Of a DNA stretch of 64,000 bases, positions 29,101 to 29,623 are shown one piece after another (the first letter of the stretch is position 1; each line of letters opens with the position of its first letter). Location: contig OZ024756.1 of assembly GCA_964016885.1 (NCBI GenBank), positions 37,138,001-37,202,000 of the forward strand, written 5' to 3'. The DNA is from Eledone cirrhosa. Its lineage: Eukaryota. Under the pieces are notes generated by a model. The model worked only from the letters and a program-made list of their open reading frames with translations. It did no database searches and was not told the DNA's origin. A program made the translations under genes and the position numbers.

Positions 29101-29352
29101 CTAATTTACACGGACATATATATATACATATATATATATATATACATATATATATACATATATATATATACACGTATTTGAGCTTAACAGTGAGACATCG
29201 AGAAAAACCACATCACAATCCCAGAAAACATATCTCAACTATTAATCATTATTCTGTATTCTATTCTAGGTTATTGTGGATCGTTCTCTGCCAACTTACC
29301 AACCTGAATCATTGTATATATATATATATATATATATTTTATTTTATAGAAG

Positions 29353-29405
29353 GAGCTTCTACAGGACTAGTACTGTTTCATTCAGATGAAATCTTCAGGA
29401 AGCTC
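29353..29405 (-). ncRNA. Type I hammerhead, family B subfamily (element ~29340-29561)
   Basis: Minus strand: GAGCTTC CTGAAGA T-TTCA-TC-TGAA-T GAAA CAG-TACTAGTC-CTG TA GAAGCTC; covaries with the 27491 copy. Confidence 0.88.
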
Positions 29406-29560
29406 ATCTGAATGAAACAGGAAGCTCATCAGGAAGCTCATCTGAATGAAACAGTACTAGTCCTGTAGAAGCTCCTTCTATAAAATAAAACATTTTTTAC
29501 TCTGCCATGTATTGAGTACCATACTTACTGTGGTTATCCCCGACTCAACCCGGGACCTAC

Positions 29561-29623
<63 letters not shown>

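Follow-up and report, generated by a model that had tools for sequence, protein, structure and literature searches.

Head-to-head hammerhead fold-backs in (TA)n of Eledone cirrhosa: a probable Hydra-type Penelope-like element and a junction scar that may record joined cDNA ends

Introduction

The closest described system to the locus considered here is the Hydra clade of C-terminal EN+ Penelope-like elements (PLEs), whose members carry canonical hammerheads, target (TA)n and leave a 5′-truncated inverted copy with a one-sided tail (Craig et al., 2021, PMC8557442). Section 11 of that paper gives DKT together with CxCX5C as Hydra marks, and its supplement includes an octopus family, Hydra-1_Obim. 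The pLTR hammerheads of metazoan PLEs form families rich in compensatory changes and occur as opposite-strand pairs (Cervera & de la Peña, 2014, PMC4209133), dimeric PLE hammerheads have been described (Lunse et al., as cited in PMC6765202), and the non-LTR retrozyme consists of head-to-tail tandem units with a hammerhead in each (10.64898/2026.07.22.740005). On the side of integration, Poseidon_Ac cuts and extends both target strands in vitro, with reverse transcription beginning internally at two sites, one to each side of the tail, and without needing ribozyme cleavage (Frangieh et al., 2024, PMC11167929). The inverted junctions of Penelope elements in Adineta vaga are palindromes and were read as self-priming (Arkhipova et al., 2013, PMC3846280). 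Templated insertions made by polymerase theta are iterative patchworks of pieces shorter than 25 bp, dependent on that enzyme where tested (PMC12426944); a search, mostly of papers outside subscription, found no literature joining "Penelope-like" with "polymerase theta".

The window analyzed here is a 64,000-nt stretch of eukaryotic DNA from Eledone cirrhosa (contig OZ024756.1), rich in microsatellites. Its positions 29337-29561 form a 225-bp head-to-head fold-back inside (TA)n. The minus strand of this fold-back carries a type I hammerhead motif in full, its C3 at 29398, and the plus strand carries half a motif. The initial annotation held that covariation validates the fold of this ribozyme and that the inversion junction records repeated template jumps by reverse transcriptase (RT); both claims are partly borne out.

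The insertion and its family

A scan of the window for type I hammerhead motifs returned 10 matches, five of which belong to one family, here called B (27497 and 50452 on the plus strand; 27305, 50437 and 29398 on the minus strand). These five make up three insertions. Every one of them is a head-to-head fold-back that borders on (TA)n at its left and right ends. Rfam models at gathering score gave no hammerhead match in the window, and the exact family B pattern was not found in viral and metagenome contigs. The parts of the insertion at 29337-29561, followed by its two relatives, are these:

29315..29336, no strand: left target flank, (TA)n sequence
29337..29408, minus: short arm, with the complete type I hammerhead motif and 22-23 nt past the predicted cleavage site
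29399..29405, minus: 5′ strand of stem I, partner of 29353-29359 and within the junction scar
29392..29398, minus: core CUGAAGA, N7 being A at 29394
29380..29391, minus: stem II domain, with U.U at 10.1/11.1, three pairs and a 4-nt loop (29384-29387)
29360..29379, minus: GAAA, a 3-bp stem III with an 8-nt loop containing the palindrome ACUAGU, and the GUA triplet
29399..29454, no strand: inversion junction
29438..29561, plus: long arm, half a hammerhead (stem II onward) and then tail, to 94 nt past the predicted cleavage site
29498..29518, plus: tail hairpin 1 (UACUC/GAGUA), a few bases past the short-arm end point
29539..29554, plus: tail hairpin 2, with an AC-rich loop
29562..29621, no strand: right target flank, (TA)n sequence
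27178..27557, no strand: second family B fold-back, with hammerheads 27305 (minus) and 27497 (plus) and arms identical over 153 nt
50377..50579, no strand: third family B fold-back, with hammerheads 50437 (minus) and 50452 (plus) and its centre within the 5′ strand of stem I

The 29398 motif has the core elements CUGANGA, GAAA and UH in order, a stem I of 7 bp that is open, a stem II of 3 bp plus U.U and a stem III of 3 bp plus A15.1-U16.1; the cut is predicted between 29360 and 29359. Positions 29406-29408 may be natural 5′ letters or else the beginning of the opposite arm. The long arm matches the short arm over 53 nt. All three insertions share this plan: measured from the predicted cleavage site, one arm extends 21-23 nt further and its opposite 89, 89 or 94 nt. 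Their arms show no differences over 153, 66 and 53 nt, and the letters that mark a subfamily are common to both arms of each insertion. The fold-back at 27178..27557 has a TATAAA 36 nt before C3.

How does family B compare with the described systems? It resembles the Hydra clade in a pLTR hammerhead built like those of relatives, in the (TA)n at both ends of 3/3 insertions and in the inverted, 5′-truncated layout with a one-sided tail, again in 3/3. It differs from that clade in having no linked coding frame, in a tail of 68-72 rather than 30-40 nt, in a loop III of 8 rather than 0-2 nt, and in the reduction of both arms to ribozyme and tail. Two exact family B stem III strings were not found in the supplement of Craig et al. 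(2021), where line breaks may hide matches. The consensus of PMC4209133 has G10.1-C11.1 and a long helix II, whereas family B has U.U and 3 bp there, a 3-bp helix III and an 8-nt loop; the U.U stands at 10.1-11.1 in all five hammerheads, against the usual purine-pyrimidine pair (G-C in that consensus). With Poseidon_Ac, family B shares an AT-rich target, and the AC-rich stem-loop at which synthesis starts there has a counterpart in the AC-rich loop of tail hairpin 2; Poseidon_Ac nonetheless belongs to another clade, and the parts of PMC11167929 consulted are silent on inversion junctions and end joining. Family B was also considered as a non-LTR retrozyme, an identity ruled out for the three insertions of the window, which are single inverted pairs and not tandem. 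Taken on its letters, the fold-back at 29337-29561 was likely inserted by a Hydra-type PLE, and we hold that identity of the element to be highly probable. Since no reading frame is linked to family B, this assignment draws on the RNA motifs and the target.

Other fold-backs in the window

Several further families share the window with family B. The fold-back of another hammerhead family (30280-30840, with motifs at 30381 on the minus and 30653 on the plus strand and a further copy at 31077) has short and long arms as in family B and a tail hairpin like that of family B; 11 nt are duplicated at its centre. A family beginning GACCCCGACGG occupies 27600-27824, 23327-23367, 26680-26830, 37639-37737, 52566-53019, 54116-54329 and 56799-56926; it has GAAAC, a palindromic loop and a GUC triplet, CUGANGA not being seen in the copies listed for the window, and it resembles family B in its short and long arms and its TATTGAGTA motif, with a 12-nt tandem duplication at the 56853 centre. 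A third family (23149-23245, 26050-26662 and 48465-48645) has a hammerhead-like GAAGA-U-CCC-loop-GGG-U-GAAA with U.U closure, in which no clear cleavage triplet was found by eye. The hammerhead motifs at 26312 (minus) and 29759 (plus) belong to yet another family, with a TATATA helix III, the 5′ stem GGACTGC and a stem I of only 4-5 bp. Finally, the fold-backs at 25652-25918 and 49569-49948 gave no hammerhead in the motif scan; in the former, a short stretch is duplicated within the spacer.

Covariation within the window

The first claim of the initial annotation was that the 29398 copy validates the family B fold through compensatory changes relative to the copy at 27491. Every letter change it cites is there, and the proof dissolves on inspection into one real pair, one impossible pair and one free position. 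Stem I does read GAGCTTC/GAAGCTC in place of AGATTC/GAATCT, but only one of its changes is two-sided (A-U to C-G); at the seventh pair only one side differs, C.C having become G-C, and the 50452 copy already has this pair. A possible third subfamily, whose stem I would read GGCUUC/GAAGCC, would supply this stem with another two-sided change; the 3′ strand was seen in loose ends and variant rows, and one or two contigs show the 5′ strand by eye, unphased.

The second supposed compensation, TTCT/AGAA to TTCA/TGAA in stem II, fails. The fourth stem II "pair" is part of a variable tetraloop, as judged from the letters, because closing it would leave a 2-nt loop, because the two positions read U-A, U.U and A-U across the three insertions, and because they vary in RAD reads without compensation. 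In two RAD runs the first position is U in 723/1460 and 687/1333 reads and the second is C in 779/1461 and 629/1334; no compensating letter occurs among the 40 of 99 rows listed, the letters being unphased. Three of the four relatives with the same 12-nt stem II segment are likewise unable to pair at this position.

The change of N7 from U to A is correctly read and carries no weight as evidence for the fold, N7 being a free position. The notion that N7 = A is private to the 29398 copy was rejected: A makes up 87% of contig depth at 29394 in run X1, although its share of the reads drops to about 9% in X23 and X24. Nor is stem III wholly invariant as had been stated; the core and the three stem III pairs are, while in loop III position 29371 has A for U. 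Over 53 nt, the copies at 27305 and 29398 differ at 9 positions, namely four in loop II, one in loop III, N7, and three in a stem I that stays unbroken, a distribution that supports selection on the fold. Among the read variants listed, the core is free of changes except at N7, and so are stem III, all three stem II pairs and the innermost three pairs of stem I.

Scored within the window, the covariation (0.083) was reached by 38/500 shuffles and the number of pairs with a two-sided change (2) was matched by 87/500, on six arms from three insertions only. Tail hairpin 2 contributes a two-sided change of its closing pair, U-A in the two B1 insertions and C-G in 29337-29561, which is not significant (174/500 shuffles). 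This change and that in loop III, both absent from the initial annotation, fit the structure better than those first put forward. The loop III change lengthens the palindrome from 4 to 6 nt, taking the predicted stem III homoduplex from -12.8 kcal/mol (B1) to -15.2 kcal/mol (29398 copy), as compared with -1.4 for the hairpin; as modeled, the predicted ribozyme would probably cut best as a dimer via the loop III palindrome. The hammerhead fold of the 29398 copy is predicted at -9.6 kcal/mol, against -12.7 for the minimum-energy fold, and local folding z-scores (-0.15 to -1.54) are not significant.

One complication concerns the only helix with a real two-sided change among those cited. The stem I 5′ strand at 29399..29405 could be a templated copy in this one insertion, since it lies in the scar and its complement is the 3′ strand. 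However, coarse depth in run X1 drops from 14,045 over 29402-29410 to 633 in the bin that follows (a single contig contributes about 7-29), which, with a matching T at -8 in 50452, suggests that the letters are natural and common to many copies.

Support for the fold from the clade

The further conclusion drawn from these changes, that selection acts on the hammerhead structure, is likely right; the evidence offered for it was insufficient, and stronger evidence lies outside the window. At 47930-48232 on the plus strand is an endonuclease fragment with a Penelope-type linker, a GIY-YIG-like region and CxCX5C, ended by a (TA)n run and unlinked to family B. A word-indexed protein search found no relatives and Pfam gave no match for the fragment, with sub-threshold matches only for its relatives. 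It has 2050 relatives at E up to 0.001, the longest of which carry RT, DKT and CxCX5C. An alignment of nine of the 150 relatives listed led to 79 metagenome loci (the best 80 of 483 being retained), and 35 of these 79, all with a related RT-endonuclease gene, contain a type I hammerhead. The 42 matches lie without exception on the strand of the gene, as compared with 1 match in 10 shuffled rounds. Four such Hydra-type loci have a hammerhead at both sides of the reading frame, near-identical in two (L003 and L057, direct pLTRs) and different in the other two (L042 and L058).

The 42 matches reduce to 32 distinct ones and to 30 relatives after merging of near-identical sequences. They were selected on core letters and stem I only, with no stem II or III pair required and with stem I kept outside the covariation test. 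In stem II, Watson-Crick pairs are formed in 30/30 (10.2-11.2), 24/30 (29 with G-U) and 23/27 relatives, and stem III pairs 2 and 3 in 29/29 and 27/29; each level was reached in at most 2 of 20000 shuffles, counts that are not probabilities because the sequences are related rather than phylogenetically independent. Position 10.1-11.1 is U.U in 17/30, not significant as a pair, and N7 is U in 16, A in 7, G in 5 and C in 2. Loop III measures 0-2 nt in 29/30, as against 8 nt in family B. The tail motif ATTGAGY lies 3′ of 6/20 Hydra-type hammerheads and 5′ of 0/20, four of the six having G-C for the A-U of family B.

This covariation in stems II and III supports well, from outside, a hammerhead fold that is likely under selection. 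In view of the clade covariation, the shared U.U closure and the shared tail motif, the family B ribozyme appears to be of ordinary build for its clade, except for the 8-nt loop III, and its U.U closure would be a clade variant rather than decay.

The inversion junction

The second claim began from short repeated pieces at the junction, and these are confirmed: GGAAGCTCATC begins at 29398, 29420 and 29432, and TGAATGAAACAG at 29409 and 29443. The whole of 29390-29470 can be rebuilt letter for letter from one strand switch, a 22-nt duplication and a 12-nt duplication nested within it. The strand switch falls at TC, a microhomology of 2 nt, or at TCATC, 5 nt, if 29406-29408 are natural. The 22-nt unit is 29399-29420, intact again at 29433-29454, and the 12-nt unit is 29418-29429 and 29430-29441, with microhomologies of 3 and 1 nt, respectively. 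Read on the minus strand, both restarts depart from one nucleotide, as expected if an annealed end was extended and released twice. The scar is thus real, and the RT template jumps proposed to explain it are possible and unneeded, one strand switch and two same-strand duplications being sufficient.

Is such a scar a feature of fold-backs in general? The 23 inverted-repeat rows of the window reduce to 13 centres, some of them not clean; the 10 rows left out are second rows of one element or have arms separated by microsatellites or other elements. At three of the 13 centres (29389, 30506 and 56853, in three families) an 11-17 nt copy of the adjacent arm was present that no shuffle reached, the 17-nt copy at the 29337-29561 junction standing at 0/500. 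In the other 10 no significant copied piece was found, nine having none and one an 8-nt TA piece at chance level. At the joints of other family B copies, several inserts among the 12 of 15 rows listed repeat pieces of the ribozyme, as judged by eye.

Origin of the fold-back and its scar

The flank-derived pieces of 22 and 12 nt, bounded by 1-5 nt of microhomology, agree with the description of polymerase-theta insertions, with which they share a length below 25 bp, derivation from both flanks, minimal base pairing at the bounds and the iterative patchwork (PMC12426944). Which enzyme made the scar is not readable from sequence alone, and RT is only one candidate, because a short iterative patchwork is described in that paper as a polymerase-theta signature; the insertions it covers are known at DNA breaks, LINE-1 and LTR elements. 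The head-to-head inversion with overlap at the junction recalls the Adineta vaga Penelope and R2 junctions, although nested duplications across the junction set 29337-29561 apart from those in the relevant passages of PMC3846280 and PMC11371274. We favor, at somewhat better than even odds (roughly 0.55), a Hydra-type fold-back in (TA)n with a scar left by repeated release and re-annealing while two cDNA ends were being joined, probably by host polymerase theta.

The events would run as follows. The endonuclease would cut both strands of a TA run, as the in vitro work on Poseidon suggests, and each 3′ end would serve as a primer on a single RNA that is left uncleaved, with synthesis starting at either of two internal sites, so that two antisense cDNAs result. 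Such priming from the two target ends fits the fixed short and long ends and the identical arms of the three insertions. Where one cDNA terminates, within the 5′ strand of stem I, its final letters would anneal to GATGA of the other; extension would be aborted and restarted twice on microhomologies of 1-5 nt, producing the 22- and 12-nt duplications, before the join was sealed. The hammerhead itself would be kept by selection on active elements, not on the inert copy at 29337-29561.

Alternatively, RT alone might have done all of this, running to the RNA 5′ end in stem I, snapping back at TCATC/GATGA, falling off after 12 nt, returning twice to the RNA (at CAG, then at TC) with the same run-off each time, and completing the second arm. 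Snap-back of one cDNA yields the same head-to-head product as the joining of two, and there is precedent both in the self-priming proposed at Penelope inversions (PMC3846280) and in snap-back after full-length cDNA for R2 (PMC11371274). The plus-strand antisense pieces, moreover, end at identical letters three times, as a repeated run-off would have it, and in two of the three family B insertions the centre falls within the stem I 5′ strand, the place expected of a start 25-30 nt past the TATAAA of the 27497 copy. Yet the third centre, at 27400, is about 90 nt further upstream, and a TATA box at such a distance (28-44 nt before C3) is not a trait of the clade, occurring in 4/28 relatives as compared with 2/28 in a control window. 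Four jumps would be required against three events in end-joining, and the fixed short-arm stop at +21 to +23 is unexplained by this model alone. On balance we regard it as rather unlikely.

Less likely still is that a clean fold-back came first and that replication slippage at the palindrome apex added both duplications later. In its favor, each unit is a simple direct duplication that crosses the apex, with flanking identity of 3 and 1 nt, respectively, and slippage is extremely frequent in this genome. Against it, the arms and all unit copies are still identical, which would make both events very recent, and pieces of both strands are mixed, by eye, in the inserts that other copies carry at their joints. 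An error of sequencing or assembly at a hairpin is a very improbable source of the stutter: in the four sequencing runs compared (X21 gave no reads), depth across 29429-29437 is near zero and no listed piece, read or contig, spans the 29337-29561 junction, but these runs need not contain the source individual, and comparable inserts are present at two further centres of the window and, for other copies, in both contigs and reads.

Extended beyond this one copy, the joining of two cDNA ends suggests a more general idea, which we advance tentatively and at less than even odds, that PLE integration is finished by passing two RT-made cDNA ends, one per target strand and both from the same uncleaved RNA, to host polymerase theta, with the stutters of fold-backs as its footprint.

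Significance

As a ribozyme the element is ordinary: Penelope pLTR hammerheads whose helices covary have been known in print since 2014. What is added here is small: a corrected covariation count, a U.U closure followed across the clade (and perhaps already visible in File S2 of PMC8557442), and a letter-for-letter account of one scar, which points to end-joining. For specialists, the value lies in a Hydra-type stem II that is mostly closed by U.U rather than G-C, and in family B as a compact variant with an 8-nt palindromic loop III. The origin of PLE inverted structures has been called undefined in published work, and junction scars offer an inexpensive way to decide, genome-wide, between self-priming by RT and the joining of two cDNAs by the host. 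If the proposed hand-over to polymerase theta is true, the thousands of tiny fold-backs in this genome would be a ready data set on how PLE inverted structures form.
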